Below, piece by piece: positions 17,330 through 53,383 of a stretch of 64,000 nt of DNA. Each line of letters opens with the position of its first letter. Positions within the stretch are counted from its first letter, which is position 1. A program made the position numbers and the translations under genes. Location of the stretch: positions 1-64,000 of the forward strand of contig JAEOTX010000039.1 of NCBI GenBank assembly GCA_016839605.1, in the 5' to 3' direction. The notes beneath the pieces are model-generated. The model saw only the letters and a list, made by a program, of their open reading frames with translations. It searched no databases and was not told the origin of the DNA. Source of the DNA: Candidatus Thorarchaeota archaeon (GTDB lineage Archaea; Asgardarchaeota; Thorarchaeia; Thorarchaeales; Thorarchaeaceae).

Positions 17330-17453
17330 TACTCTCCTTTAGACTATTGAGGAGTCACGCGAAGGTTTTGGGTTCGACTTTTAAAGGTGCTCATTGCTCC
17401 CTGATAGTTGAGCGTCATCCGTGCTCCTGATAGCGAAAACGCCGGGTTTGAGG

Positions 17454-18110
17454 ATGCCAAGACAGCTGAATGACATCAAAGAACTAGGCCACAGACTTGT
17501 GGCTCATGCATACCCTGAGTTCGATGGCAGAGATCTCAAGATTGATACTGGCAAATTGAGATCTTACGGGCAAGTTAGATGGAGTGATGCGGGTGGGATA
17601 CAAATCATATGCCATCAAGATGTCATGGAATGGCCAGAACCTGCATTAATTGGATTGTTGGCTCATGAGATTAGTCATCCTGCAGAAGGAAGTTCCTCTG
17701 AAGAAGGCACAGATCGAGATGTCATTAGCAGGGGTTTAGGCCACTACCTTGCCGTAGAACGTGCATTTGTCGATAAGTACGGTGATCACATTATAAGCAA
17801 AGGCAAAGACCGTTACTTGGGATTTCAAAGCGTCAGGGAGCTGCTCAATGACCATGAGCAGAGAATTATGGAGAATCTGCTTGAGGACTTCAAGATTCTA
17901 CCCTCAAAAGAAACGAGGAAGTTCAGATTGATTCATGACACAGCAATTCACGATGAAATCGGACACTCCATCTTGTTGATTGAAGGGCAATCAATTAGAG
18001 TGGAAGGAGCTCGCCCGAACTCTGACATTAAATTGCTCTTTCGTGATGAGATTCTCTATGTTTATGCAGACGATGATGTCGTTGCCCAAGTCCCTTGGCG
18101 CGAAAGGTAG
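17454..18110 (+). CDS. Hypothetical protein with zincin-like HExxH motif
   Basis: GLLAHEISH...EEGTD; start set to ATG 17454 (track 17421). Confidence 0.6.
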   Translation: MPRQLNDIKELGHRLVAHAYPEFDGRDLKIDTGKLRSYGQVRWSDAGGIQIICHQDVMEWPEPALIGLLAHEISHPAEGSSSEEGTDRDVISRGLGHYLAVERAFVDKYGDHIISKGKDRYLGFQSVRELLNDHEQRIMENLLEDFKILPSKETRKFRLIHDTAIHDEIGHSILLIEGQSIRVEGARPNSDIKLLFRDEILYVYADDDVVAQVPWRER

Positions 18111-18128
18111 AGAACAGACACAAGCGAT

Positions 18129-19421
18129 CTATTTTCTTCTCTTTTTTATTGAAATTTGCTGCTTTACAGTCACATCGCTGTCTGGTGGAATATCCTGACC
18201 AATCACACATCCAGGAGCGATTATACTGCCCTCACCAATTCGTGTGCCAGGCATCACTGACGCATTAACTCCAATGACAACGTTGTCACCAATGATAGCT
18301 CCTAATTTCTTGATGGGAACCTCGACTTCTTCATCACCAAAATGCAACTTGATTGGTTTATCACCTGGTCGCCAGTTCCACATCTGAGCTCCCGCCTCAA
18401 TGCAAGAGTCTCTCCCAATAATTGAATCACCGACAAATGTCATCCTTCCAACCATTACTCTGTCAAAGATCATTGAATTCCTCATCTCAACTGCATAGCC
18501 GAGATGAACGCCTTCACAGAGACTTGAATAGTCGCGCACAAGAGAATTGTTGCCAACATAGACATTCTTACCTATGTATACAGGCCCTCTGATTGTCGCT
18601 CCTGGTCTAATGATACTGCCTTCATCAATGAAAACAGGACCTTCTAGAACCACATTCTCATGAATCTCGGCAGACTCTGCAATGAAGCTGCCTTTTCCCT
18701 TCAGCTCTCTATCCATCACAATTCTGTTGGCACTGAGAATATCCCATGGCCAGGTGAATTCAGCCCACTCCTTTTCCCAGACTGCCGCGGTAACAGTCCG
18801 ACCCATTTCAATTATCTTCTCGACTGTATGTTCCATTGTTTCATGCTTTTTAAGGAGTGGAATGACATCAGCCTTGAATACAGTTACTCCGGCAACTGCG
18901 TAGTTGCTCACATACCTGTCTGGCCCGCCTTTCTCGACTAATTTCTCTACAGCTCCATGCTTGCCTATCTTAACGGTGCCAAATTGCTCAGGATTAGAAA
19001 CGAGTGTCACAAGCATGGTGATATCGGAACTCATAGAGCTGTGATTCGAAAGAGTCCGTTCAACCATCTCGGATTCAACAAGTACATCCCCGTTGACAAG
19101 CAGGAATTCCTCTTCTCCCTCAAGTTCAGCTTTAGCTTGCAGAATTGCGTGCTCCACGCCCTTTTGCTCATGCTGGATGACATATCGAATTCGGACGCCT
19201 TGATCCCCGCCCATCTGGAAATGGTCGATCAATTGCTCGCGGCCATGTCCAACCACAATTACAATGTCGCGAATTCCATTGTCTTTCAAGCTGTCAATTA
19301 TGTACTGCAAGACAGGCCTTCCCGCTATCATCAGCATTGTCTTTGACCTGCTGGAAGTGAGAGGCCGCAGTCTAAGCCCTTGACCAGCTGTCAGAACGAG
19401 TGCTTTCATGGATACAACCAC
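18129..19421 (-). CDS. Sugar-1-phosphate nucleotidyltransferase with left-handed beta-helix (archaeal GlmU-like)
   Basis: LTAGQGLRLRPLT, VNGD, hexapeptide repeats, KLGAIIGDNV. Confidence 0.9.
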   Translation of the reverse strand: MVVSMKALVLTAGQGLRLRPLTSSRSKTMLMIAGRPVLQYIIDSLKDNGIRDIVIVVGHGREQLIDHFQMGGDQGVRIRYVIQHEQKGVEHAILQAKAELEGEEEFLLVNGDVLVESEMVERTLSNHSSMSSDITMLVTLVSNPEQFGTVKIGKHGAVEKLVEKGGPDRYVSNYAVAGVTVFKADVIPLLKKHETMEHTVEKIIEMGRTVTAAVWEKEWAEFTWPWDILSANRIVMDRELKGKGSFIAESAEIHENVVLEGPVFIDEGSIIRPGATIRGPVYIGKNVYVGNNSLVRDYSSLCEGVHLGYAVEMRNSMIFDRVMVGRMTFVGDSIIGRDSCIEAGAQMWNWRPGDKPIKLHFGDEEVEVPIKKLGAIIGDNVVIGVNASVMPGTRIGEGSIIAPGCVIGQDIPPDSDVTVKQQISIKKRRK

Positions 19422-19469
19422 ATCTTATGAAGAAGTACCTTGGCATAAAACTTTGGTTGGTAACCCAGC

Positions 19470-20198
19470 TCAAGGCGCCTTGAGGGAGAAGTATATCCTT
19501 TGCTTCCCAGCACCAACATTTTTGCTCTTCCCTATCTGGATTGCGCCAATCTCACGAGTATTTGCAACATGAGTGCCAGCGCATGAAGCAGCATCATAAT
19601 CTCCGATAATGAGAACCCTGAACTCGGTAACACTAGCCGGAACCATCTCAAGGTAGCGAGTTTGGTATCCACGCTCATTGAGGAAAGAGATTGCCTCATC
19701 ACGAGGCATCATTCGAGTGTCAACATCCAATTCTCTAGCAAAAATGGCATTGACTCCCTCCTCCACATCACGCTTCAAAGCATCATCGAATTTGTGCATC
19801 GGCGTGAAATCAGCTCTGCTTCTCTTGGGTTTTATCATGTTTCCCACAGTTATGAGGTCATATTTCAGCTGCAAATACCGAGAGAGAAGATGCTGAGCAG
19901 TATGAAAACGCATGCATTCGTATCTAAATTCCCAATCTAAAGCGCCATGAACCTTTGTGCCAGCTTTAAACGGAATGGGGTCATTTGTGAAATGTCGTAT
20001 CTCTCCTTCGACTCTCCTGACCTCATGTATCCCTAGAGATGTATCTTCAGATGAAAGACTTCCTCGGTCACTGCTCTGTCCTCCCCCCAGATAGTAGAAT
20101 GCGGTCTGGTCTAATACAAGATAATCATCAGCCACCTTCTGGACAACTGCATCGAATTCCCGGAGATAGTTGTCGCTCATGTACAGTAAATTAGTCAT
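19470..20198 (-). CDS. alaX: Alanyl-tRNA editing protein AlaX
   Basis: LDQTAFYYLGGGQ, MRFHTAQH (HxxxH), CAGTH (CxxxH). Confidence 0.92.
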   Translation of the reverse strand: MTNLLYMSDNYLREFDAVVQKVADDYLVLDQTAFYYLGGGQSSDRGSLSSEDTSLGIHEVRRVEGEIRHFTNDPIPFKAGTKVHGALDWEFRYECMRFHTAQHLLSRYLQLKYDLITVGNMIKPKRSRADFTPMHKFDDALKRDVEEGVNAIFARELDVDTRMMPRDEAISFLNERGYQTRYLEMVPASVTEFRVLIIGDYDAASCAGTHVANTREIGAIQIGKSKNVGAGKQRIYFSLKAP

Positions 20199-20209
20199 TG
20201 GGAAGAGCC

Positions 20210-20752
20210 TCAAGTTCCACTTGACTTTCTAACTCGAAGCCATTCTTCCACAGCAAGGTCTTGTGCTTTCTTGACCTCTTCAGGGGTAAGATCAATATCA
20301 GGAGTCCCTGCAGCAGCATCAATGATGTTCCGAACGTCCTCTTCGGTTCCCTCTTCCTTGAGTCCGGCTGAAACAGCAGATGCGATATCATTTGAAATCC
20401 CTCTTTCAGCAAGGAAACGCGCGAGAGGTGTGTAGGATACGGGGATATATCCAGTTTCAGTGGAGGGTTGAAGTCCAACGGATTTCATCTCAGTCTCAAA
20501 CATATCTGTGATGATTGATTCACGTGATTGTACTTCAGGAACTTTGACGGCACGCTCCTTATCCACATCACTAATCATCCTCTGCATCTTACCTACAGCT
20601 GACGACCTAGATGGCCCCCGCCTACGTCTAATAGCAAATACAGCTATAGCTAGAAGGATGAAAAACAATACCAGATACTGGAACATCGGGTCCATGAAGA
20701 GATCGATCAATTGGTTCAGAATCACGTCAATTTGCATGAATGGACACTCCAC
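20210..20752 (-). CDS. Hypothetical protein with single N-terminal TM anchor
   Basis: Hydrophobic helix followed by RRRR; soluble helical C-terminus. Confidence 0.6.
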   Translation of the reverse strand: MECPFMQIDVILNQLIDLFMDPMFQYLVLFFILLAIAVFAIRRRRGPSRSSAVGKMQRMISDVDKERAVKVPEVQSRESIITDMFETEMKSVGLQPSTETGYIPVSYTPLARFLAERGISNDIASAVSAGLKEEGTEEDVRNIIDAAAGTPDIDLTPEEVKKAQDLAVEEWLRVRKSSGT

Positions 20753-20828
20753 CTAGACGGAAGGCCTTCTGAAAGGCTTCACTGCCAAAGGTCAACTTTA
20801 AGGTTTCCCCTATGCAGGTAGGCTAGAA

Positions 20829-21962
20829 TCAGCCCTTGGAAAAATGACGGGCGATTTCCAAGTAAACATCAACAGATTGAACCAATTGGTCAACCTCTAT
20901 GAACTCGTTTGGTTGGTGAGCCTGTTCTATGGAACCCGGACCACAGATTATATTCAGAATCCCAATTTTAGGTTGAAGTACAGAACAATCAGTTCCATAT
21001 GTTGCGCTGGTGGGCGTAGGTTTTACTCCCGTGATTCTAGTCACCGCATCCATACTGACTGATACGATCTCTGATTCGTACGGTGTCACAACCGCAGACT
21101 TACCGTGAATATATTCCACTTTAGCTCGATTTGAGAGGCCCGCAGACTCAAGTCTCTTATTCATTGAAGCAAGAATGCCCTCAGGGGATTGTCCTTTAAC
21201 AATTCGCATATCAAGTCGGGCCTCGCACATATCTGGTACAACATTGACTTTGACACCACCCTGGATAAGACCAATGCTTAGAGTCTGCGTTCCTAGCAAG
21301 GCGTCTTCCTCATAGTCATAATCAGAGTCTGTGAGTACTTCAAGTGCTTCAACGCACAACTCAATAGCATTGATGCCTTCCTCTGGTCGAGAACCATGAG
21401 CAGCTTTTCCCTCTGTGACGAGACGGGACCAGAAGATCCCTTTCTCTCCTACAAGAACATTGAGAGATGTAGGTTCAGCACAGACACCGAATTGAACTCC
21501 CTCTAACTTACCACTCTTGGCGACTTCTTCAGCTCCTGTGCAGCCGCTCTCCTCATCAGAAGTAGCGAGCATTAGAAGAGGAGTGGTATGGCCTTCATCA
21601 CTATATTGAATCATAGCTTCAGATAGAGCAGCTACTGGCCCCTTCATATCTGCGGCACCCCTCCCATAAAGCAGACCATCAATGATTTCACCTCCAAAAG
21701 GATCATGCTTCCATGACTCCCTAGGCCCAGCCGGGACCGTGTCCATGTGTCCGTGAATCACAAGAGGTCCCTTCTCTGCCTCTATAGTTGAGAACAAGAG
21801 ATTGGGCCGCTTACTAGGACCTATGGAAACACAGGAGATGCCATGGTCTTCCATATGAGACCGAAGAACTTTGGCAACTTCAGCTTCACCGCCAGGCGGG
21901 CTTTCTGAGTTGGTTGCGACTAGTTCTTGGGTTAATGATATCAGTCTGCTTTTGTCTGTCAT
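20829..21962 (-). CDS. M20 family metallopeptidase/deacylase (ArgE/DapE-like)
   Basis: HGHMDTVP, YGRGAADMKG, DEE, AEPT, AHGS, QAHQPNE. Confidence 0.92.
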   Translation of the reverse strand: MTDKSRLISLTQELVATNSESPPGGEAEVAKVLRSHMEDHGISCVSIGPSKRPNLLFSTIEAEKGPLVIHGHMDTVPAGPRESWKHDPFGGEIIDGLLYGRGAADMKGPVAALSEAMIQYSDEGHTTPLLMLATSDEESGCTGAEEVAKSGKLEGVQFGVCAEPTSLNVLVGEKGIFWSRLVTEGKAAHGSRPEEGINAIELCVEALEVLTDSDYDYEEDALLGTQTLSIGLIQGGVKVNVVPDMCEARLDMRIVKGQSPEGILASMNKRLESAGLSNRAKVEYIHGKSAVVTPYESEIVSVSMDAVTRITGVKPTPTSATYGTDCSVLQPKIGILNIICGPGSIEQAHQPNEFIEVDQLVQSVDVYLEIARHFSKG

Positions 21963-22053
21963 GGGACCACCTGCCTCGAGCAATACTGTCTAGGCTAAGA
22001 AGATTCCTGAAATGCAGAAAGTAGCTTCTTAAGGAATGAAATCAATACAAGGA

Positions 22054-22127
22054 TGGCAGTTCGATGAGGCGGTTACCCCTGTCTGAGCATTCGCGATGAC
22101 GACCCAAGAGCATGCTGAGATCTGCCA
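22054..22127 (+). ncRNA. Box C/D guide sRNA
   Basis: Terminal stem TGGCAG(22054)/CTGCCA(22127); C box CGATGA 22062; 15-nt guide; D' CTGA 22083; C' CGATGA 22094; 15-nt guide; D CTGA 22115; TATA-like CTTAAG ~22028. Confidence 0.82.
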
Positions 22128-22176
22128 CTATTTCTGACAAAAGAAGTGTAGGCTGAGACCATTTTTGGTTGGTTTT

Positions 22177-22350
22177 CTAATTCCCCGTCACAGGGCTCAT
22201 CAGGAGTTTGTTGCGCTGAATTGTCACTCCGTAAGTTTGTCCCTCATCGTCTTCAACTGAAACTGCGGCCCCTTGCAAGAATACACGGACGCGTTTTCGC
22301 AGTCTACGTCCCGGTAGATCGCGGATGTTGATGACACAGGTCTCAGCCAT
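22177..22350 (-). CDS. Small hypothetical protein, 57 aa (below ORF-track cutoff)
   Basis: MAETCVINIRDLPGRRLRKRVRVFLQGAAVSVEDDEGQTYGVTIQRNKLLMSPVTGN; GGAG SD; TATA TTATATAC at 22433-22440. Confidence 0.6.
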   Translation of the reverse strand: MAETCVINIRDLPGRRLRKRVRVFLQGAAVSVEDDEGQTYGVTIQRNKLLMSPVTGN

Positions 22351-22593
22351 TTCAGGGAACTCCGACGGATGTATGTGGTGGTCGCGGCAGCCTGATAGGG
22401 ATGCAAGACTTACTCTATTCCTAGGAATTCAAGTATATAACCGAGATTTGCGTATTCAATCCTGTAGAGATGTCCAGAACTTGAGCTAGAAGCCATTTTA
22501 AGGAGGGGTCATGAAATCTTTCCCAAATCGGGATAGAAGGTCATACAGAAGTAATACACCGCACTATGCAAACTTAACAATCGGCCAACCTAT

Positions 22594-22794
22594 TCAGGGG
22601 TCTCGTTTCAGACTCTTACCTGATGACAGAAGCTTGGCGTAGAGATTTCCATTCCTTCGAGAAATAGCTATGAACTCCGATTCAACTTCGACGACAATCT
22701 CCTCATTCTCATTAATTAGTGTATACAGGTTTTGATTGTCCATGTCCCGCAGGATTCTTTGTAGGTCTTCGGAGTAATCCTTCTCCATTTGCAT
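22594..22794 (-). CDS. Small hypothetical protein, 66 aa
   Basis: Protein-like composition; TTAATAA TATA-like element ~22862-22868. Confidence 0.6.
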   Translation of the reverse strand: MQMEKDYSEDLQRILRDMDNQNLYTLINENEEIVVEVESEFIAISRRNGNLYAKLLSSGKSLKRDP

Positions 22795-22896
22795 TCCGCC
22801 ATTGCATCGTAGTGTGGTGGTTCTTGTAGATGGAACGGTGCAGCCTTCGTGGTCTAACCCATTATTAACTCCTTTGCTGGCATGTTTGCTATAGTT

Positions 22897-24375
22897 TCAC
22901 GGATTATATGCAAATGGATGTCTTGCGGATTCTTTTCGCTGAATAATCTCCTCTACAGTTTGCCGTCCCTCAAACGCTCTTCTAATTGCGAAGCGAACAG
23001 CACGGAAGTTGTTGATATGGACTCGTTTTGGATTCACTGCGTTGGGATGAACGAAAGCGTTCACAGCAATGACAAGATCGGGAATAAGCTCCTCAGGGAT
23101 TACTCCATCGGTAATCGTACGTTTAATTGCATCAGCAACCGCTCTCTGAGCGACTTCCATGACCATTTTCTTCTGCTTCTCACTCGTTATTGTCACCGTA
23201 GGTGCAAAAACTGTAAGAGGATCAAGGTCCTTGATAACATTCGATGAATGAACGCCCTCAACAATTTTTCCAGCATTATCCAATGCAGTACTGAGCGGGC
23301 CATCTCTGACGCCCATAATGAGATCGACATGTGCCACCTCCTGACCTTCACCGGCTAAGGCCTCACCATGAAGCAATGTCAGGTCTTCTACGACATCAGG
23401 AACTAAGCCAACTGCCTTTGGATAGCCTTCGGCAATTAATTCTCGATCACCCATCCTGAAAGCTACAGGTCCACGCTGTATCAATTGGAGGTCTTCAAGG
23501 CAAGTCCGAAGTTCATCGATGTCTTCATACCTCAATGAATCGCTCTCCTGTAGGGGGCGTCGAGCTGGTCCAACTGGAATACCCATCATATTCAATCCAG
23601 CCTTGATAGCTAAACCTCCCCCTCGATTGACAAAGATTCTAACTGTCTTCTGAATGCTCCGTTGAATTATCAGAGCCTCCTTGAGGTCTCCAGCAGCTAG
23701 CGCTGCCTGCATCTTGACATATCGATCTGGAAAGATGTTCGCACTGGCTAGAATTGCGCCATCGCATCCAGAAGCAAGTGCCGGGAGTGCCACCTCATCG
23801 TGTCCAACCATGACCTGAAACTCCTCTGGCTTGCGAACAAGAACTGTTGTCAGGTGCACGAGATTGCCGCTTGAATCTTTCAGACCAACGATATTCTCAA
23901 TCTCTCGTAGGCCATCGATAACCCACCAATCAAGCATGACCCCAGTTACCTGAGGGATGTTATACACGATAATGGGAATCTCAGATGAATTTGCGATCTT
24001 CTCAAAGTGCTCGTATATTTCCTTCGTCGAGGGCTTGAGGAAGTATGGTGTGACAACTAGTGCTGCAGAAGCCCCGAACTCAGCTGCTCTTCGCGTCAGC
24101 TTGATTACATCATTAGTATAGGCGGCACCAGTACCAGCTACCACTGGGACTCGTCCACCAGCAGCTTCGCAGGCTATTCTGATTGCTTCAACCTTTTCCT
24201 CGAACCGCATGCTGGTGAACTCACCTGTTGTACCGCATGGAACTAGTCCAGTAGCTCCCTTTCCGATTGTATAATCGATTAAGCCACGATACTGCTCCTC
24301 ATTGACGCCATTCTCATCGAATGGAGTGACTAGAGCAGGATATACTCCTTTGAATCGATAGGTGTGACTCGCCAT
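22897..24375 (-). CDS. DapA/NAL-family class I aldolase fused to C-terminal formaldehyde-activating enzyme (Fae) domain, copy 2
   Basis: GTTGE, YNIP, Schiff-base LKDSSG; C-terminal GEALAGEGQEVAHVDL...AFVHP...AIRRAFEG...ARHPF matches Fae. Confidence 0.88.
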   Translation of the reverse strand: MASHTYRFKGVYPALVTPFDENGVNEEQYRGLIDYTIGKGATGLVPCGTTGEFTSMRFEEKVEAIRIACEAAGGRVPVVAGTGAAYTNDVIKLTRRAAEFGASAALVVTPYFLKPSTKEIYEHFEKIANSSEIPIIVYNIPQVTGVMLDWWVIDGLREIENIVGLKDSSGNLVHLTTVLVRKPEEFQVMVGHDEVALPALASGCDGAILASANIFPDRYVKMQAALAAGDLKEALIIQRSIQKTVRIFVNRGGGLAIKAGLNMMGIPVGPARRPLQESDSLRYEDIDELRTCLEDLQLIQRGPVAFRMGDRELIAEGYPKAVGLVPDVVEDLTLLHGEALAGEGQEVAHVDLIMGVRDGPLSTALDNAGKIVEGVHSSNVIKDLDPLTVFAPTVTITSEKQKKMVMEVAQRAVADAIKRTITDGVIPEELIPDLVIAVNAFVHPNAVNPKRVHINNFRAVRFAIRRAFEGRQTVEEIIQRKESARHPFAYNP

Positions 24376-24380
24376 TTCAA

Positions 24381-25808
24381 TCAACTCCATATCTGAGATA
24401 GAGCAGCCTTTACTGCATTTTCAGCAGCGGCTCTGATTACTCTGCGTTCGCGCGTGTTCATGTCAATGTCCATAGCCATCAATACTACATCGCTCGTCAG
24501 GACTTCATCAGGGATAAGTTCCTTCTCAAGATGATCTGCTATAGCCCGGGCGGCACCAGCTTGAACGGGTCCATAAAAGAGAGAAGCTTGCCTCATGGAT
24601 TCGATTTTGCTAATAGGAAACATTAGGCTTGACGGTTTTACCGGAAGATTCGGTTCAAGAATGACTGTAAGAGCTTCCCGCCCGACCTGAGGTGTGGTCA
24701 ACAGTGTCACAAACGCTCTACCAATTGGGCCATTCTTTGAGCCCGATACCATACTCACCGAAACCTTCTCATTTGATCCTGAACCGTAACTAGTGCTTGC
24801 ATCATCTATATCCAAACCGATTTCACGGAGTACATCTTTGATTTCAATCAACTCAGGTGCAGGATGATCTAGAGATTCAATCACTCCCAGTTTCTCAAGT
24901 TCTAACCGAATTTCCTCTTTGAGTTCCAGTGTCAAAGTCCCACCTGTGTCAAGGGGAATCCTACTTCGTCCTGCTTTGATGCCAATCATCTTTAGTGCGG
25001 CTTTGACTGGCGGCCCTCCTCCATTCCTTGTAACTATCCTAGCAAGAGTCTGTGCTTCCTGTTGCAGCTGAGCTGCTCTCTCATGATCGCCAGCCTTCAC
25101 ATGCTCGATAATCTTAAGCCAGATATGTGGGATGATGTTTGCAGAGGCCATAATTGCAGCACTCGCTCCAGCGGCAATAGCTGAAAGAAAGCACTCGTCA
25201 TGTCCAATTAGGACTGGAATTATGCCCTTCAACTTCTGAATTAGTTCAACAGTATGACCAATATTCCCACCACTATCTTTGATTCCAACAACATTGTCGA
25301 GCTCGGCCAAGTCTTCTACTACGTTTGAGTTCAGGACACCTAGAGTGCATTGAGGAATATTATACAAGATTATTGGCAAATCTGCTTTTCGTGCAACTTC
25401 AGCATAATGATCATAATATCCCTTGTCTGCAGGCCTCAGGTAGTAGGGAGAAATAATCAGTGCTGCATCGCAACCAATATCAGCTGCATACTGAGTGAGT
25501 GAAACAGTTGCCCTAGTGCTATTTTGGCCAGTACCCGCGATAATGGGGACTCTTCCATCAACATACTCAACAGCAAGCTTGAGAAGCTTCTTACGCTCCT
25601 CTGTTCTCAGATATGAGAACTCCCCGGTTGTTCCAGCTGGTACGACTCCGGTCACTCCTTTTCCGATGGTAAAGTCAATTACCTGTTTGAATCCTTCTTC
25701 AAGGATGTCCCCATCCTTGGTGAATGGTGTGACCAGAGCAGGCATTACTCCTTTTGGAACGAATCTCTTGCCCAACAGTTTCACCCTTGAATAGTGCGTG
25801 GCTGGCAT
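24381..25808 (-). CDS. DapA/NAL-family class I aldolase fused to divergent Fae domain, copy 1
   Basis: GTTGE, YNIP, IKDSGG; C-terminal KNGPIGRAF...ILEPNLPVKP...QASLFYGPVQAGAARAIAD matches the Fae core. Confidence 0.86.
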   Translation of the reverse strand: MPATHYSRVKLLGKRFVPKGVMPALVTPFTKDGDILEEGFKQVIDFTIGKGVTGVVPAGTTGEFSYLRTEERKKLLKLAVEYVDGRVPIIAGTGQNSTRATVSLTQYAADIGCDAALIISPYYLRPADKGYYDHYAEVARKADLPIILYNIPQCTLGVLNSNVVEDLAELDNVVGIKDSGGNIGHTVELIQKLKGIIPVLIGHDECFLSAIAAGASAAIMASANIIPHIWLKIIEHVKAGDHERAAQLQQEAQTLARIVTRNGGGPPVKAALKMIGIKAGRSRIPLDTGGTLTLELKEEIRLELEKLGVIESLDHPAPELIEIKDVLREIGLDIDDASTSYGSGSNEKVSVSMVSGSKNGPIGRAFVTLLTTPQVGREALTVILEPNLPVKPSSLMFPISKIESMRQASLFYGPVQAGAARAIADHLEKELIPDEVLTSDVVLMAMDIDMNTRERRVIRAAAENAVKAALSQIWS

Positions 25809-25857
25809 CTCGCATATAAACTAGGGGTTGCAAACTGTAGCTTATATCCCGAATATA

Positions 25858-26319
25858 TCACGAAGGAGACCCAGACTCCCAGGAGGATGATGGGGGTCTG
25901 ATAATAATTGGTGTCAATAATAAGGCTAGTAATGCAACTAGCGGAATAGGAGTGAAAGTGATTAGAGGTCCGCTGCTGGTGAGGTATCCAATGACAATAA
26001 AATACCCAAACTGCATCAAAAGCAAGATGAATACAACAATGGCATATCCCAGCCTAGTCAAATCCTCCCTAACTATTGAGAAGAACGTCACGCCTGATAC
26101 TATAAGTCCCATTCCCCAAAAGGGCAGGTAATCGATAGTGAGCCCAAGCGGAAACTCGAAGAAAAAGGAGCCTCCTGAATGTGACACGAATGACCAAATC
26201 GGCGCCACAATCCGGATACTTGTTCCACCAAGCAGGCTCTGCTCTATTATGAAATATGGTGCTAGCAGAGTCGCAGTTACTAGAAACAAGGCAATTTTCC
26301 GCGGAAATCCCGGGCTCAT
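25858..26319 (-). CDS. Hypothetical membrane protein
   Basis: About 4 hydrophobic helices. Confidence 0.6.
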   Translation of the reverse strand: MSPGFPRKIALFLVTATLLAPYFIIEQSLLGGTSIRIVAPIWSFVSHSGGSFFFEFPLGLTIDYLPFWGMGLIVSGVTFFSIVREDLTRLGYAIVVFILLLMQFGYFIVIGYLTSSGPLITFTPIPLVALLALLLTPIIIRPPSSSWESGSPS

Positions 26320-26424
26320 TATCCAAACCGTGTATTGACATGGATTTTCAGGATAATAACATTCGTTTCTTGCCAGAAGGGAAATTGCATATGATTTATG
26401 GCTAGGTGTAGCTATGAAGAATGC

Positions 26425-26742
26425 ATGACAGAGTACATTTTGGCGATCACTACATGTCCAAATAGCGACGCTACCGCTCTGGCAAAACGGCTCGTGGAGG
26501 CGAGGGTGTGTGCTTGTGTGAATATTGTCCCTTCAATTAGGAGTATCTACAGGTGGAAGGGCAAGGTCGTAGATGATGAAGAGAGTATTCTTTTCATCAA
26601 GACTGAACGTGCATTTCAGGAAAGCCTCTGGAATGAGATTAGAGCGCATCACTCCTATGACGTGCCTGAGTTTCTTAGCATCCCAATTCAAGGAGGCTCT
26701 CAGGACTACTTGAGGTGGATAACAGAGAACATCACAGGCTAG
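26425..26742 (+). CDS. cutA: Divalent-cation tolerance protein CutA
   Basis: CACVNI, SIYRWKGKV, IKT, HSYDVPE, YLRWI. Confidence 0.93.
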   Translation: MTEYILAITTCPNSDATALAKRLVEARVCACVNIVPSIRSIYRWKGKVVDDEESILFIKTERAFQESLWNEIRAHHSYDVPEFLSIPIQGGSQDYLRWITENITG

Positions 26743-26744
26743 CT

Positions 26745-29204
26745 CTATGCAAAATCAACCCTGCGGGCTGCATATTCCAATGATTCATTGAAATACTTGC
26801 GGATAATACGAGCAATAGCAGGGCCAACTATGTAATTGATATCACCTGGCATGAGTTTCTTCAGATTTGTCTTTCCTGTTATCTTTCCATTCCTGCGTAA
26901 AGCCCTTATCTCCCGATCTACAATTGATCTTGCTTCTGTGAGTGTCATCGGCTTGGCCGTGGACCCGATGAGACCTTGCTTAATGTCTGTGATAGACCTC
27001 ATCACAAACACAGCCAAGTTCTCAGTGTCGTTAGCAGGAATCATGTTGGTGGCTTTGTGGGTCTTGCATATGTTGTCAGACGGCGTTTCGCCACAAACTG
27101 AGCAGATCTTCCTACCTCTGCTGGTGCGGATATAGTATGACAATAGATTCGCGCATTTCGAATCGTCATTAGCGTTCCATTCAAGGCCTTTGACGCCTAC
27201 CCTTCCAATAGCTCTAAACACGGTCTGACTCTTTGTATATATCCAAGTCAGAACATCAAGTGATGCTTTCTTGCTGTCAGCTACCTTCTGCTCCTCAAGT
27301 TTGGCTTCAAGCACCAATTCCTCCTTGGCAAGCTTCTTCCGACGTTCGGTTCTCAAGAACCGATGCATGACGTCATATGCAATTGCATAGTTATCAAAGT
27401 CCAACTGGTCAGTCACGAGTTCAGTATCAATGACTCCTTCAAAGACTGGACTTGGAGTGCTATCAAGCTCAGTCTTGGCAGCGGTCATGTCTTTGTTGGA
27501 TAGCCGAGCATGCATCCACGAAGTGATGTCTGGGGCTTTCAAGTCGGGATAGACTATCTTTAGCTCGTAGATTCTCTGAGATGCCAGATCGATGAGGATT
27601 TCTTCTCGAAGGGCTTGAAGGTCGGTTTCAGGACTCTCATATATACTCTTGAGAAGTGCCTTGATACGCAAGAGGTCCTGCTTGGAACGGATATAGGTTT
27701 CAACCACGCGTGAGAGGTTTGTGAGGATTCCTGAAGTAAGATGCCATACTAGGTCAAATCGAAGTGCTGCGATTGTTTCGCCATGACGACGGTGTCGAAC
27801 TATATCGGAAGATGATGATACGCCAATAGAACTGAGCGCGCCCTGCTTGACTTTTTCTCGAGCCTCAAGTAATCGCTTGACATCTTCTGAGGAAGGAACT
27901 CGAGTCTTTTGCTTAAGTGCCTCCAGAACCTTGACCTCGAAGCCAATAAGTGAGTCGCGGTCTTTTGCCAACGTTTCAATGGTGAACTTCTCGAGTTCTG
28001 ACGCCCTGAGACCTTGCGCTTTCAGTGCACCCTTGACAGGTCGTTCCAAAATGTTTTCGAGCTTGTCTATAGCTTTGAGTGATCGCTCCAAGTAATCCAT
28101 TTCTACCTCGCTTACAGCGGGACCTGCGGTCTCTGTTTTGTCGGATTTATCTTCATCTGCAATTCGAAATCCCTTGACCAAATCAGTAGGATCTGACAAG
28201 CCCTTACGCCTTAATGCTGCGGCTATGTCGGTCGAGGGTATCTGTAGGAGATGAGAGAGTAAGTCGAATGCCCCTGCTGGATTCACTTCAATAGCTGCAG
28301 CTACCTCTTCCGACACCTTGTTGACAAGCTGTTTTTCATATTCATCCAATGTTGTAGCACCTGCCAATTGCGCCTCAACTGCAGTTAGAAAATTCAGACG
28401 TATCTCCTGAGCACGCTTAATACTAGCTAGGTGATCAGCAGGTCTGCAATATCTATTTGCCACGTCTTTTGCGATATCACCCATTGTAGCAGGATACAAC
28501 ATTGACTCCACGATGTGCGAATTAGCATACCGCGGCTCGCCCCATATTCGCTTTAGACCCTCCTTCAGAACAGTGATCTCTATAACTTCGGCATCATGCT
28601 CACGAAGAACTTCTTCTCGAAGAGACATGGAGGTTTCCTTCAATCCGGAAGCCTTGGAATAGAGGTCTTCTCTCAGCTTCACATCAAATTCCGAAAGCTG
28701 ATTGAGCAAGTCGATGTCATGATTTTGAGAGAATTCACTTGGAATCATTCCAAGATGTTCCTTGAGTAGGTCCTCTGTTCTTGCCAAGGTTTCGTCATCT
28801 GCAGGGTTTCTATTTCCAAGCTCATCACAGAAGCGAATTATAAATTGAGCGAGTATTTTTCCGACAGCAACTTCTTCGCGTTGTTTGGAACCAAGAATGT
28901 GTCGGACTTCATTCTCTAGCTGCACCCTTGTTTCCACGCCAACCTTCTCTTGATCTTCAATGCTGAGGTTCTGAGTGTCTTCAATGGTATGCAATCGAAC
29001 TCCTTGGTAACTCTGCAAATAGAATGACGCAAAGGCCGCAAAGACCTCATCTAATGGACGAGGATCAGGACTCATTTCATTGAAGATCTGTCTGGCTCTG
29101 GTGCTTCTTAGATGAGTAGCTAGAGCTTCACGAAGGATGATTTCTTTGCCAGCCTCACTCATCTGTCGTGTCTTGATAATCCACGAAGTTGACAAATCAG
29201 ACAC
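26745..29204 (-). CDS. Large alpha-helical hypothetical protein (819 aa) with C-terminal CxxC...CxxH zinc site
   Basis: Long ORF overlapping the upstream stop; CSVCG...CKTH. Confidence 0.7.
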   Translation of the reverse strand: MSDLSTSWIIKTRQMSEAGKEIILREALATHLRSTRARQIFNEMSPDPRPLDEVFAAFASFYLQSYQGVRLHTIEDTQNLSIEDQEKVGVETRVQLENEVRHILGSKQREEVAVGKILAQFIIRFCDELGNRNPADDETLARTEDLLKEHLGMIPSEFSQNHDIDLLNQLSEFDVKLREDLYSKASGLKETSMSLREEVLREHDAEVIEITVLKEGLKRIWGEPRYANSHIVESMLYPATMGDIAKDVANRYCRPADHLASIKRAQEIRLNFLTAVEAQLAGATTLDEYEKQLVNKVSEEVAAAIEVNPAGAFDLLSHLLQIPSTDIAAALRRKGLSDPTDLVKGFRIADEDKSDKTETAGPAVSEVEMDYLERSLKAIDKLENILERPVKGALKAQGLRASELEKFTIETLAKDRDSLIGFEVKVLEALKQKTRVPSSEDVKRLLEAREKVKQGALSSIGVSSSSDIVRHRRHGETIAALRFDLVWHLTSGILTNLSRVVETYIRSKQDLLRIKALLKSIYESPETDLQALREEILIDLASQRIYELKIVYPDLKAPDITSWMHARLSNKDMTAAKTELDSTPSPVFEGVIDTELVTDQLDFDNYAIAYDVMHRFLRTERRKKLAKEELVLEAKLEEQKVADSKKASLDVLTWIYTKSQTVFRAIGRVGVKGLEWNANDDSKCANLLSYYIRTSRGRKICSVCGETPSDNICKTHKATNMIPANDTENLAVFVMRSITDIKQGLIGSTAKPMTLTEARSIVDREIRALRRNGKITGKTNLKKLMPGDINYIVGPAIARIIRKYFNESLEYAARRVDFA

Positions 29205-31932
29205 CTCCTATGTTTCGGAAGTGGGTATCGCCCACAGTTACAGTCAGCTCGTTACCGACATGTTCGTATGTCACCAGATAAATAAGTTCAGGACTCTTGG
29301 GATCCCTCAGATAAGCCCTAGTGGCGCGTGGCAACAGTTTTCCTAAACTTCTAATCTCCGTGTTGCGCAAATACTCAAGAAAGCCCTCCCCAATCTCTAC
29401 TGTCAATTCGCCCGATGCTGCTGATGCTTCCGACAGCATCTGATTCAGGCTTTCTGCAAAGACTTGTTCCATCTTCTCTTGAGCCACATCCATACTATTT
29501 AGCTTCTCGGTCAGTAGGTCTCGGAGATCGATGTAGTACTGCATTTCAGGTGGCGGTACAGGCTTCTCAGGAACTGGTATCTCCTCCATTTCTGGGAATT
29601 GATTATTCACCTCAACAATTCTAACATCGAGGGATTGTGGACGCTTCGGCTCAGTGAGTGGTGGATGAGGCTCAGTAAGTACTGGAGGAGGCTCAATAGG
29701 TACTGGAGGAGACTCACCGAGTGCTGCAGGAGGCATTTCCTCAGGCAAAATCCTAGCAGCTTCCACATCTCTGCGATACTTCTCCATTTCATTATCGTAG
29801 CGGACCACATCTCTGCGATACTTCTCCATTTCGTCATCATAGCGGGCCTTCTCCTCATTGTACTGAGTTTCAGCAATGGTGATCGCCTCCGCCCGTTTCC
29901 TGTTATTTTCGCGGATGGGTTGATTCTCTGATTCAATGCGCCTGCAATTGTCTTCCCAATCCTCTACAATCAGCTGGTAGGCTTTCTCCTGCTGATTAGC
30001 CTCGAAAGTGACCTTGTCAACTATGGCCTGCGCAGTCGAACCTAATCCAACCTTGTTATGCACAAATCTAAGAAGCGCCAAGAACTTCTCTGGCACTTTC
30101 ATCTGCGGTTCTACGGTCTCGAGATATCCTCTAATCCATGTGCGGGCCTCATCTCTCCATTCATCAGGCTTTTGAGTCATGCCTTCTATAAATTCGCCAA
30201 TCTCCTTAGTTAAGTCAGCTCCTTCACTAATCACTTTGTCAATGACCCTTCTTACCAGTGTCTTTGAGAGGAGAGTATCAGCAACATTGGGAATGATATT
30301 CAGAACAAGATCCTCGAATGTTTCCAGCATTGCGAGGATAGCTTTCCCATTCTCCGAGAGTTCCTGTGAGTCAGGTCCAGCTGCATACTTGCGGGCTATC
30401 TCGGATTTGGCGATTTCAGCTACATCACTAAATCCGACAAGATCCCAGACATCAATTCGTTCAAAGGCCTCCAGCATGTCCTTGTTAATAATGGCAAGAA
30501 TTTCATCCAAGTTACGATACTCAGAGCCTTCGTAGGAAACCTTGTCGAAGATGGCGTTCATTTGGGAATGCAATTCAACATAGAATTTCTCAAAGAGCAT
30601 TCTATCTGTGGCTTCAGTAGTGGACGATTTCATCTGTTCTTGGAATCTATTCAAGGCTGACAGGAAGGCTTGTCTTGCAGCTGTGACGATTAGAAACTGA
30701 TTCAATGCATCTGAGAAATAGCGAATTGTTCGCTTCGCGTAGAGGTTGAAGTACGACACTGTGCTTCCAAGCCGCCATGCTCTAACCTCAGAAATATCAT
30801 AGAAACCACGCTGAACTGATTTCATCAGCTCTTCTGTCATTGCCCGCGCAATGGTTTTTCTGAAACCAACGAACCAATCATCATGCATTTCAATCTGAGC
30901 CAAAATCTCAGCCTTATGGTCAGGCAAAGAGAGAGTCTTTCCCGATTTTACATGTTGCTCAGCAATCTTTTCGAATGACTCTACTGATTCAGAGAGCATT
31001 GATACGAACTCGCCAAGTTCTCTCTTGAATGAGTGCAAATCACGGAGGGCAATTTCACTGCGGCCGAGAAACTTAGAGAATATTCTAGTTGTGGCAGTTG
31101 CGATATCAACTTCCTCTATGCTGTATGCGTAGATATTCAACTCGTTTAGGATTGCTCGTCCCGTTTCAGGCACCTTGACAGCAATTGCTTCGAGACCCCG
31201 CGGGGTTAATATTCTATGTTTGAAATGCTTGAGAACTGTGTCTTCGCTCTCTCGAGGCATGAAGAATTCGAGAAGAGTCCGGTCCATGACTTTGATTCCT
31301 GGCGGGAGCAATGTGAAGTCTTCTCGAAAGTTCATTGTTACTGCGACTTCTTTGTCCACATGCTCAGGTTTGAGCTGAAGAGAATCCCAAGAAGCTTGAA
31401 AGCGTCTGTCCAGCATCTCAACGAAGATAACGCGATTTAGCCGATCATTGAATCTTCTGAGCACAGGGAGACCATGTGTTTCATAGCTCATTCCGTTGCT
31501 GATAACAGCACTCTCGATATCAGACATCTTCTTGGACAACGTCTGCATATGTTCGTCAATCCTGAATGGATCAACCGCTCCTTTCTCCCAGCTGAGAATA
31601 ACAACGTGAGAACCAATCCCTTCTGAAGTTCCTCCAGCAACCACTAACTGTTCTGGAAGTACACCAGGACCCGGCGTTCGTTCCAAGTCCCATTCGAGAG
31701 AGAGAAGCTCGAGGCCCTCAGCATCCAAGAGAGCATCGCGGATAGCAAAAACAAGAGGAGCAATATTCATTGCAACTGTATCAGAATTCTCTTCCATCAT
31801 ACTACCAGAGCCCACGGCACTACCCAAAGGATATCCCAGATTCGTAGTAGTACCAAGAACAGAAGCAGAGGCCATTCTAATGGCTTCTACTGTGCTCGGA
31901 GTGTCGACTTTCTTGTCTGACCGACTCATCAT
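29197..31932 (-). CDS. Large hypothetical protein (911 aa): possible roadblock/longin-like N-terminus, helical core, coiled coil with Pro-rich hinge
   Basis: Long ORF; internal 14-aa and 7-aa repeats. Confidence 0.7.
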   Translation of the reverse strand: MMSRSDKKVDTPSTVEAIRMASASVLGTTTNLGYPLGSAVGSGSMMEENSDTVAMNIAPLVFAIRDALLDAEGLELLSLEWDLERTPGPGVLPEQLVVAGGTSEGIGSHVVILSWEKGAVDPFRIDEHMQTLSKKMSDIESAVISNGMSYETHGLPVLRRFNDRLNRVIFVEMLDRRFQASWDSLQLKPEHVDKEVAVTMNFREDFTLLPPGIKVMDRTLLEFFMPRESEDTVLKHFKHRILTPRGLEAIAVKVPETGRAILNELNIYAYSIEEVDIATATTRIFSKFLGRSEIALRDLHSFKRELGEFVSMLSESVESFEKIAEQHVKSGKTLSLPDHKAEILAQIEMHDDWFVGFRKTIARAMTEELMKSVQRGFYDISEVRAWRLGSTVSYFNLYAKRTIRYFSDALNQFLIVTAARQAFLSALNRFQEQMKSSTTEATDRMLFEKFYVELHSQMNAIFDKVSYEGSEYRNLDEILAIINKDMLEAFERIDVWDLVGFSDVAEIAKSEIARKYAAGPDSQELSENGKAILAMLETFEDLVLNIIPNVADTLLSKTLVRRVIDKVISEGADLTKEIGEFIEGMTQKPDEWRDEARTWIRGYLETVEPQMKVPEKFLALLRFVHNKVGLGSTAQAIVDKVTFEANQQEKAYQLIVEDWEDNCRRIESENQPIRENNRKRAEAITIAETQYNEEKARYDDEMEKYRRDVVRYDNEMEKYRRDVEAARILPEEMPPAALGESPPVPIEPPPVLTEPHPPLTEPKRPQSLDVRIVEVNNQFPEMEEIPVPEKPVPPPEMQYYIDLRDLLTEKLNSMDVAQEKMEQVFAESLNQMLSEASAASGELTVEIGEGFLEYLRNTEIRSLGKLLPRATRAYLRDPKSPELIYLVTYEHVGNELTVTVGDTHFRNIGGV
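29648..29846 (-). repeat. Coding tandem repeats: 4 x 21 nt (EPPPVLT-like) and 2 x 42 nt (RYDxEMEKYRRDVx)
   Basis: 21-nt units from 29648; ccacatctctgcgatacttctccatttc identical at 29763 and 29805. Confidence 0.9.
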
Positions 31933-52186: not shown

Positions 52187-53383
52187 ATGATTTCTCACCT
52201 TCTCCATCTCGAATGTCCTCAATGTAGTAGAAGTCATTCAGCTGAAACTCATGCCACTTTCTGTGTATGTGGGTCACCACTCTTTGCCGTGTACGATCTA
52301 TTCAGTGTAATCGAGGACATTCAGAGGGAGCAATTTCCCACAGAAGTTAATTCCATGTGGAGATACTCACAACTTCTTCCAGTGAAGTCACCATCTTTCA
52401 TTTACAGCCTAGGAGAAGGATGGACTCCACTAACCAGCACTAGACGCCTTGGGAAGCATCTTGGCCTGAGATTCCTCAGTATCAAGGATGAGGCCCAAAA
52501 TCCAACTGGCTCTTTCAAAGACAGGGGTTTGTGTGTTGCTATATCCAAGCACCTAGAGCTGGGATCCACATCATTCGCGTTGCCCTCGGCAGGTAATGCA
52601 GCAGTTTCAACGAGTGCCTATAGTGCCGCTGGAGGAGCCGAATGTCATATCTTTATGCCATCAGATACACCTGAGCCGTTCTTCCACGATTGCATTATCT
52701 ACGGTGCTGAAACTGCTCGAGTGAATGGCAACATATCTGATTGTGGCAAAGCCATGAGAAAAGCAGAAGGTGAATGGACTGACCTGTCAACAACAAAAGA
52801 ACCCTATAGAGTTGAGGGGAAAAAAACTCTAGCTTTTGAGATTGCTGAGCAGATGGGATGGAAAGTTCCCGATGCAATAATCTGCCCCACAGGAGGAGGC
52901 ACTGCTCTAATCGGAATCTGGAAAGGCCTTGATGAGCTAGAAGCACTAGGTCTAATTGAAAGCAAAAGGCCGAGAATGTATGCAGCTCAAAGCGCGGGTT
53001 GCGCACCCATTGTGAGGGCAATCGAACAGAGAAGCGAAGAAATACAGCCCTGGCAGATTAGTGAAACAGAAGCCTTAGGATTGAGGGTTCCTAGTCCATT
53101 TGCTGGAAGACTGATTCTCGCCGCGATTCGACAATCAGGGGGTGGAGCTGTAGCTGTGGCTGAACAGGAAATTGAGCCCTGCCACAGAATGGCGGCACGT
53201 ATGGAGGGGATGGACTTCTGTCCAGAAGCTGCTGTTGGACTCGCAGGCATCCGGAATCTTGTGGAGATGGGAGAGATTGATTTTGACGAAGAGATAGTGC
53301 TCTTGAACACGGGTTCGGGAGCAAGATACTACTATGGAAATCAGAATCAGACAAAGCCAGAATCTTCTGAAAAAGAGCCATAG
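52187..53383 (+). CDS. thrC: Threonine synthase
   Basis: N-terminal Zn ribbon, SLGEGWTPL, NPTGSFKDRG, SAGNA, EGKKT, PTGGG. Confidence 0.9.
   Translation: MISHLLHLECPQCSRSHSAETHATFCVCGSPLFAVYDLFSVIEDIQREQFPTEVNSMWRYSQLLPVKSPSFIYSLGEGWTPLTSTRRLGKHLGLRFLSIKDEAQNPTGSFKDRGLCVAISKHLELGSTSFALPSAGNAAVSTSAYSAAGGAECHIFMPSDTPEPFFHDCIIYGAETARVNGNISDCGKAMRKAEGEWTDLSTTKEPYRVEGKKTLAFEIAEQMGWKVPDAIICPTGGGTALIGIWKGLDELEALGLIESKRPRMYAAQSAGCAPIVRAIEQRSEEIQPWQISETEALGLRVPSPFAGRLILAAIRQSGGGAVAVAEQEIEPCHRMAARMEGMDFCPEAAVGLAGIRNLVEMGEIDFDEEIVLLNTGSGARYYYGNQNQTKPESSEKEP

Follow-up and report, generated by a model that had tools for sequence, protein, structure and literature searches.

Complementary motif loss in two adjacent aldolase-Fae fusion genes of Thorarchaeota points to a probable composite Fae-like site

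Introduction

Do two neighbouring genes of a thorarchaeon, both labelled DapA and both ending in a degenerate copy of the formaldehyde-activating enzyme Fae, encode two enzymes or the two subunits of one? The genes lie in a 64,000-nucleotide stretch of Candidatus Thorarchaeota archaeon (GCA_016839605.1, contig JAEOTX010000039.1, positions 1 to 64,000), hereafter called the window, and are named here B (upstream) and A (downstream). In canonical Fae both faces of neighbouring subunits jointly form the pocket for tetrahydromethanopterin (H4MPT), and the enzyme is reportedly a homopentamer. An initial annotation of this locus had proposed that, after duplication, each copy kept one face of that pocket, leaving only the contact between A and B active. 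In this study, we report that the complementary loss of Fae motifs is confirmed, and that a heteromer of A and B with one composite site is the best-supported and, judging from a structural model, a likely reading of it.

24381..25808, minus strand: gene B (upstream gene), 475 aa; class I aldolase domain of the dihydrodipicolinate synthase (DHDPS) fold plus a truncated Fae-like domain keeping face 2 only
22897..24390, minus strand: gene A (downstream gene), 497 aa from the first ATG; DHDPS-fold aldolase domain plus a Fae-like domain keeping face 1 and the catalytic His

Gene architecture and complementary motif loss

Both proteins consist of a DHDPS domain (PF00701, E ~1e-75), a linker and a C-terminal Fae domain (PF08714). 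The match to the latter spans profile positions 2-158 of 159 in A (E 9.8e-33) and 10-135 in B (E 9.9e-26), with scores of 113.8 and 91.1 bits, respectively, both above the Pfam gathering cut-off of 27. Against the NCBIfam Fae model TIGR03126 (equivalog-domain cut-off 118.05 bits) A scored above the cut-off (122.8) and B below it (86.7). In addition, the model of archaeal Fae-Hps, in which Fae is fused to 3-hexulose-6-phosphate synthase (NF009833), gave 96.8 and 76.9 bits for A and B vs. a cut-off of 274, with only its Fae part being matched.

22912..23367, minus strand: Fae-like domain of A, putative donor of face 1 (PF08714; alignments and model)
23356-23370, minus strand: HGEAL of A, kept
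23323-23340, minus strand: EVAHVD of A including the catalytic His (His354 codon at 23329-23331)
23044-23055, minus strand: FVHP of A, kept
22912-22926, minus strand: C-terminal arm ARHPF of A, kept
24396..24773, minus strand: Fae-like domain of B, putative donor of face 2 (PF08714; alignments and model)
24633-24656, minus strand: EPNLPVKP of B, kept
24561-24575, minus strand: YGPVQ of B including the Gln88 equivalent, kept

The two domains were aligned with Fae of Methylorubrum extorquens (1Y5Y) and with 24 intact archaeal Fae domains, 11 of them from Fae-Hps and 13 from single-copy aldolase-Fae fusions. The alignments bear out that A keeps the N-terminal GEAL and EVAH motifs with the catalytic His together with the C-terminal tail (HGEAL, EVAHVD, FVHP and ARHPF), and A also keeps NN[FY]. 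Its middle part, described in the initial annotation as eroded, is so only in part: a deletion of 4-6 residues replaces PNLxxKP and MEVAQ stands at the position of FGPAQ, while the Gln aligned with Gln88 is still there. The converse claim, that B keeps this middle part and has lost both ends, holds as well. The motifs kept by the Fae domain of B are GHEALTVILEPNLPVKP and MRQASLFYGPVQAG; at its N-terminal end the GEAL loop has a 6-residue deletion and KVSVSM takes the position of EVAHID, with the catalytic His replaced by Ser, DIDMN stands at the position of FVHP, and the last ~20 residues, which form the C-terminal arm, are absent.

This division holds throughout the lineage, with the equivalents of the catalytic His22 and Asp24 present in 99% of the thorarchaeotal A proteins and in 0% of the B proteins. 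Neither A nor B carries in one chain both the GEAL/His/C-terminal arm face (face 1) and the PNLPxKP/FGPAQ face (face 2); each has one of them. Among the 66 columns conserved in intact Fae, 27 are kept only by A, 15 only by B, 10 by both and 14 by neither, a division that exceeds chance expectation.

Modelled contact and selection on the two faces

Complex modelling covered one pair, the Fae domains of A and B, which were given separate alignments (57 rows for the A domain, A1, and 59 rows for the B domain, A2) in three runs with three controls. The interface score ipSAE was 0.90, 0.90, and 0.88 in the three runs vs. 0.00 for the best control, and in the calibration of the tool that mark is reached by 58 of 80 solved complexes and by 2 of 110 mismatched pairs. 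The contacts agreed between runs by at least 91%, and the predicted local distance difference test (pLDDT) value of the partners was at least 88. In domain numbering, the modelled interface is composed in A of residues 14-18 (HGEAL), 27 (His), 29 (Asp), 37-39, 71 and 73 (PTVT), 115, 117, and 162-166 (ARHPF), and in B of residues 53-61 (ILEPNLPVK), 82-84 and 86-87 (YGP.QA) and flanking helix positions. Thus, in this confident model, the motifs kept by A contact the motifs kept by B, the two sets lying on opposite faces that touch each other, as had been anticipated. According to the UniProt/HAMAP annotation of Fae, its H4MPT ligands are His22, Asp24, Leu53, Lys71, Thr73, and Gln88, and the residue types at these six positions of the 1Y5Y sequence match that list. 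When assigned to the faces of the model, positions 22, 24, 71, and 73 fall on face 1 (A-type) and positions 53 and 88 on face 2 (B-type).

The constraint on the two faces is asymmetric, and in opposite directions in the two paralogues. The contrast between the faces is strong: the share of conserved residues that survives in A is 71% for face 1 but 19% for face 2 (p ~0.003), and in B it is 27% and 74%, respectively (p ~0.003). In the same way, the entropy over 107 thorarchaeotal A proteins was 0.58 bits for face 1 vs. 1.27 bits for face 2, where 5 columns were deleted (p 1.5e-4), and that over 113 B proteins was 1.53 bits for face 1 (15 of 36 columns deleted) vs. 0.73 bits for face 2 (p 0.0015). 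Intact Fae domains displayed no asymmetry (1.07 vs. 1.20 bits; p 0.56). Furthermore, the unused face of either protein varies more than the remainder of its domain, an observation that speaks against the gain of a second interface and, with it, against ring closure.

Distribution and history

Co-occurrence of the two genes, a check that the initial annotation had proposed, was surveyed in 46 Thorarchaeaceae genomes belonging to 16 genera. Matches to the Fae domain were found in 43 of the 46 genomes and both A and B in 41; contig ends or incomplete assemblies account for the exceptions. Whenever A and B were on one contig they were adjacent, always with B preceding A, and this tight order was seen in 10 thorarchaeotal genera as well as at two further loci (L046 and L047). 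Identity among the thorarchaeotal B orthologues ranges from 54 to 94%. No canonical Fae or Fae-Hps was found in the 46 genomes, nor was any other Fae found in the host genome, whose assembly is 80% complete.

24373..24390, minus strand: B/A junction, with the B stop codon TGA at 24383-24381

The junction has the layout expected for translational coupling. The stop of B and the start of A overlap by 10 nt if the first ATG of A is used and are separated by 5 nt if the second is. The true start is probably the second one, at 24375, since GGAG lies 9 nt upstream of it and it gives a protein of 492 aa, in agreement with the 491-492 aa of the A orthologues.

Other Asgard families have Fae-Hps together with a single gene of ~500 aa in which the aldolase is fused to an intact Fae domain (E ~1e-55), and this two-faced single-copy fusion is widespread in Bathyarchaeia and in Loki-, Hod- and other Asgard lineages. 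It is likely, from sequence comparison, to represent the ancestral state of A and B. In two more Asgard families (L029, L030) there are pairs in the B-then-A order whose complementary losses are of the same kind but less advanced, and such pairs were also found in another archaeon (L047, GCA_003560875.1) and on a contig (L046) whose A-like protein clusters with an Anaerolineae protein. Degeneration is furthest in Thorarchaeota, where B has lost FVHP as well. In maximum likelihood trees (quick IQ-TREE search, LG+G4, unrooted) the A-like proteins all fell into one clade (SH-aLRT 98) and the B-like proteins all into another (100), including those of the two Asgard families, the other archaeon and the Anaerolineae-like contig. 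Since each paralogue has a single origin, a single old split of the single-copy fusion is indicated, and one old duplication of the two-faced aldolase-Fae fusion, followed by complementary degeneration and later spread, would be the simplest history of these sequences. The existence of the fusion without the split bears on a further claim, namely that the split reconciles the pentameric Fae with the symmetry of DapA barrels; given that unsplit two-faced fusions are widespread, this argument is not supported.

Aldolase domains

24948..25754, minus strand: aldolase (DHDPS) domain of B (PF00701)
25620-25634, minus strand: GTTGE of B
25440-25451, minus strand: SPYY of B (Tyr107 equivalent kept)
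25353-25364, minus strand: YNIP of B
25266-25286, minus strand: GIKDSGG of B (Schiff-base Lys)
23530..24354, minus strand: aldolase (DHDPS) domain of A (PF00701)
24220-24234, minus strand: GTTGE of A
24040-24051, minus strand: TPYF of A (Tyr107 equivalent replaced by Phe)
23953-23964, minus strand: YNIP of A
23866-23886, minus strand: GLKDSSG of A (Schiff-base Lys)

The equivalents of the Schiff-base Lys161, of Tyr133 (YNIP) and of Thr44/45 (GTTGE) are kept in both proteins, and the closest solved structures are true DHDPS enzymes, with 35-40% identity. The Arg138 of DHDPS binds the carboxylate of aspartate semialdehyde. At the equivalent position A has Val and B has Cys, and the Arg is missing in the whole fusion family (YNIPQ[VC]T). 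In the alignment with DHDPS of B. anthracis (1XKY), NVPGRS stands opposite NIPQVT. Because of this absence, and because Asd was found in only 5 of 21 thorarchaeotal genomes, A and B are, by their sequences, not DapA.

The Tyr107 of DHDPS reaches across the tight dimer into the active site of the partner. Its equivalent is Phe in 106 of 107 thorarchaeotal A proteins, and Tyr in 94 of 104 B proteins and in 130 of 133 single-copy fusions. This pattern of residues fits, as a hint, an asymmetric A-B aldolase dimer with the full triad only in the site of A.

As a separate observation, both aldolase domains have G-H-D-E (23794-23805 and 25194-25205 of the window) where DHDPS has G-D-D. A similar motif, GxDE, binds a sugar hydroxyl in the N-acetylneuraminate lyase subfamily, and G-H-D-E might have to do with the aldehyde that the two aldolases use.

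Proposed mechanism and alternative explanations

According to the reading that we favour, A and B would be two subunits of one enzyme, derived by an old duplication of a single-copy class I aldolase-Fae fusion followed by complementary loss. The face kept by the Fae domain of A would be the one with the catalytic His354, Asp356, the strand with PTVT and the ARHPF arm at the C terminus; the Fae domain of B would have kept the face opposite to it, where the EPNLPVKP loop lies together with YGPVQ and its Gln88 equivalent. A complete H4MPT pocket could then arise only where face 1 of A meets face 2 of B, giving one Fae-type site per A-B pair without closure of a ring. A would bind B, formaldehyde would still be condensed with H4MPT or released from it at the composite site, and the C1 unit would be passed to or from the Schiff-base aldolase domains. 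That the heteromer is obligate and that only the A-B contact is active are steps that we infer. Thus, of the initial proposal, the retention of one face by each copy with a functional A-B interface is upheld by the opposite faces in the model, by the relaxed unused faces and by the co-occurrence of the genes; the reconciliation of symmetries is the part that finds no support.

It must be noted that several points weigh against this heteromer. The Gln that A retains in alignment with Gln88 sits on the degenerate face of A. Across the 66 conserved columns complementarity is marginal (Fisher odds ratio 0.35, p 0.046). The model resembles a solved homo-oligomer, the Fae pentamer 1Y5Y/1Y60, so that its good score shows how similar the contact is to that interface and does not by itself prove that A and B bind, and the predictor may have reproduced the known complex. 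Moreover, the definitions of face 1 and face 2 were taken from the very model under interpretation. With respect to the aldolases, the change of Tyr107 to Phe is not universal among A-like proteins, since the A of family f8 and the proteins P0361 and P0398 keep Tyr. Finally, in the distant pair at L047:3544-6449, checked by motif pattern, xKDSxG (Schiff-base Lys) and YNxP are unmatched in both proteins while the complementary Fae halves persist; both aldolase sites of this pair may have been lost, and, with the Schiff-base Lys motif missing there, the coupling of aldolase and Fae is not universal.

An improbable alternative is that the Fae-derived domains have given up H4MPT and formaldehyde chemistry and now hold the two DHDPS-fold aldolases together, as a heterodimerisation module or scaffold, or that their ligand is a different one. 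The persistence of the L047 pair after the disappearance of the aldolase Lys motifs would fit it, as would the scores of both domains, which are far below those of canonical Fae (E 1e-26 to 1e-33 vs. 1e-70), and the failure to find in 31 thorarchaeotal genomes the conserved partner gene of other lineages. Against it speaks the nature of the residues that are most strictly kept, which are not just any interface residues but the catalytic His and Asp of A and the Gln and PNL loop of B. In addition, Mch is present in the host genome, so H4MPT chemistry is in use there, and no other Fae was found in the host (80% complete) or in 45 related genomes.

Quite improbable, too, is that A is the only catalytic Fae subunit, working as a homo-oligomer, and that B is a diverged paralogue with a separate role, possibly purely aldolase or regulatory, and no shared site. 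The retention by A of the catalytic His, Asp, FVHP, NN[FY] and the tail, its position over the NCBIfam Fae cut-off with B below, and the share of non-interface conserved columns kept (72% in A, 33% in B) are what such a division of roles would predict. However, face 2 of A is deleted or variable, and a contact between two A subunits would be without the PNLxxKP and GP motifs that are conserved in every intact Fae. B keeps these motifs almost invariantly, and that would be difficult to account for if nothing lay opposite them. The two genes are also coupled and co-inherited.

The database annotation, by which A and B would simply be isozymes of DapA (4-hydroxy-tetrahydrodipicolinate synthase) that carry a C-terminal ornament, is hardly credible, given the Arg138 equivalent absent across the fusion family and an Asd found in only 5 of 21 thorarchaeotal genomes, so that the DapA substrate would mostly not be made, despite TIGR00674 (dapA equivalog) scores of 229.6 and 228.1 bits over the cut-off of 206.15 and true DHDPS enzymes as nearest solved structures.

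Metabolic context and genomic neighbourhood

By analogy with Fae-Hps, the aldolase of the A-B heteromer may catalyse the addition of formaldehyde to a 2-oxo acid or the reverse cleavage. That this reaction is specifically pyruvate + formaldehyde = 4-hydroxy-2-oxobutanoate is a tentative suggestion from the same analogy. More doubtful still is the full scheme in which the A-B pair is a heteromeric hydroxymethyl-transferring aldolase, with formaldehyde channelled between methylene-H4MPT and the Schiff-base site and with pyruvate and the C1 unit giving 4-hydroxy-2-oxobutanoate or a related 2-oxo acid. No Hps above the cut-off was found in the host genome. A role of the pair as replacement of PanB was considered and rejected for the thorarchaeotal lineage: PanB (PF02548) is present in the host, in 37 of 43 thorarchaeotal genomes and in the fusion-carrying families f9 and f12.

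Homoserine dehydrogenase was found in 2 of 43 thorarchaeotal genomes, ThrB above the cut-off in 0 of 21 and ThrC-like genes, of which there are several, above the cut-off in 18 of 21; with the canonical route from aspartate to threonine mostly missing, there is no particular gap that would assign A and B to the homoserine node. Homoserine dehydrogenase and the fusion tend to exclude each other among Asgard clades, but only in part, and both co-occur in g43, g52, f16, f8, and f18. The window itself contains a sub-threshold ThrC-like gene (52355-53320, plus strand). No true DapA was found in the host assembly (80% complete). Its only other gene of the DHDPS family (G000:C141:10957-11802; L033:1465-2454, minus strand) has a KdgD-type likeness (CGNTGEF, VGVKYAFG) and lacks the DapA hallmarks.

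In the window, A and B belong to a block (17421-31932) with genes for two helical proteins of 911 and 819 aa, CutA, B, A, an M20 peptidase, a 180-aa protein, an AlaX-like protein and a nucleotidyltransferase. The block is largely syntenic in 10 Thorarchaeaceae genera, with CutA, M20 or outer genes absent from some of the loci compared, and since it travels as a whole the neighbourhood gives no specific functional clue to the pair.

In other Asgard families a conserved protein of 315 aa (mean column identity 74%) is encoded next to the aldolase-Fae gene or pair, at the following loci:

L015:821-1759, minus strand: 315-aa neighbour
L016:325-1293, minus strand: 315-aa neighbour
L021:2104-3051, plus strand: 315-aa neighbour
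L022:4513-5460, minus strand: 315-aa neighbour
L023:4529-5476, minus strand: 315-aa neighbour
L029:2039-3058, minus strand: 315-aa neighbour
L030:2040-2987, plus strand: 315-aa neighbour

It gave no sequence match in Pfam, NCBIfam or the PDB, and AlphaFold2 folds it as a TIM barrel (pLDDT 76) that resembles class II aldolases only weakly (template modelling score 0.47). The protein was not found in 31 Thorarchaeaceae genomes, with the control positive in 3 of 4 other genomes, and this non-detection rules it out as an explanation of the thorarchaeotal pair. A second conserved protein, of ~428 aa and without a match in Pfam or NCBIfam, is encoded directly upstream of the single-copy fusion in three other Asgard families:

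L017:5254-6534, minus strand: ~428-aa neighbour
L018:1737-3023, plus strand: ~428-aa neighbour
L019:1752-3059, plus strand: ~428-aa neighbour
L020:1737-3023, plus strand: ~428-aa neighbour
L025:1726-3009, plus strand: ~428-aa neighbour
L026:1666-2955, plus strand: ~428-aa neighbour
L027:1735-3015, plus strand: ~428-aa neighbour

Relation to known systems and significance

To our knowledge, Fae has so far been described only in homo-oligomeric form or in fusion with Hps, and our literature search found no publication on an aldolase (DapA)-Fae fusion. The Fae domains of A and B share fold and family with the enzyme of Methylorubrum extorquens (PDB 1Y5Y/1Y60; PF08714, TIGR03126; EC 4.2.1.147), whose acid-catalyst His and C-terminal arm are kept in A and whose PNLPxKP loop and GPxQ are kept in B, and the modelled A-B contact would use the same kind of subunit interface. 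Nevertheless, that Fae is a stand-alone protein of ~170 aa with both faces on every subunit (5 chains per entry), whereas in A and B the faces are split, each behind an aldolase barrel, and ring closure has apparently been lost.

The best functional analogy is provided by archaeal Fae-Hps (NF009833), present in many other Asgard families, in which the fusion partner of Fae is likewise of the aldolase type and produces or consumes free formaldehyde. There, an intact Fae is N-terminal to an Hps partner of the OMPDC fold in a single gene, while in A and B the Fae domain is C-terminal to a DHDPS-fold Schiff-base aldolase. The single-copy fusion, automatically annotated as DapA, has in common with A and B the two-domain architecture, the linker, the aldolase motifs and the missing Arg138, but it is one gene with a two-faced, high-scoring Fae, and it usually adjoins the conserved 315- or 428-aa gene, the first of which went undetected in 31 thorarchaeotal genomes. 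DapA itself (DHDPS, TIGR00674) shares the fold, the Schiff-base Lys, Tyr133 and Thr44/45; A and B are without Arg138, A also without Tyr107, and both carry the extra Fae domain.

With regard to the evolutionary route, the trypanosomatid deoxyhypusine synthase DHSc/DHSp is a heterotetramer of an enzyme and a pseudoenzyme paralogue with shared active sites. The likeness to A and B lies in the duplication of a homo-oligomer with interface sites, followed by complementary loss that leaves only the heteromeric interface complete, although fold and chemistry are unrelated and for A and B the association and the dependence of activity on it are modelled. Origin from one duplication with complementary loss of site residues, as expected of paralogues with a composite site, is found in A and B. 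If the reading is right, a Fae site split over two genes and fused to Schiff-base aldolases would offer a clear example from nature of a homomer that became an obligate heteromer through complementary degeneration.

It must also be considered that a large enzyme family, spread over Thorarchaeota, other Asgard lineages, Bathyarchaeia, Korarchaeota-like archaea and Anaerolineae, is uniformly mislabelled DapA in databases. This distorts metabolic reconstructions, in that lysine biosynthesis is wrongly credited and formaldehyde/H4MPT chemistry is overlooked. As no other Fae was found in Thorarchaeota, the A-B pair may define the handling of formaldehyde in these archaea. Were the hydroxymethyl-transferring aldolase to prove true, the pair would be their sole formaldehyde-activating activity and would form, in Asgard archaea, a direct connection between C4 keto acids and the C1 pool of the Wood-Ljungdahl pathway, a chemistry of a kind that we know only from engineered pathways.

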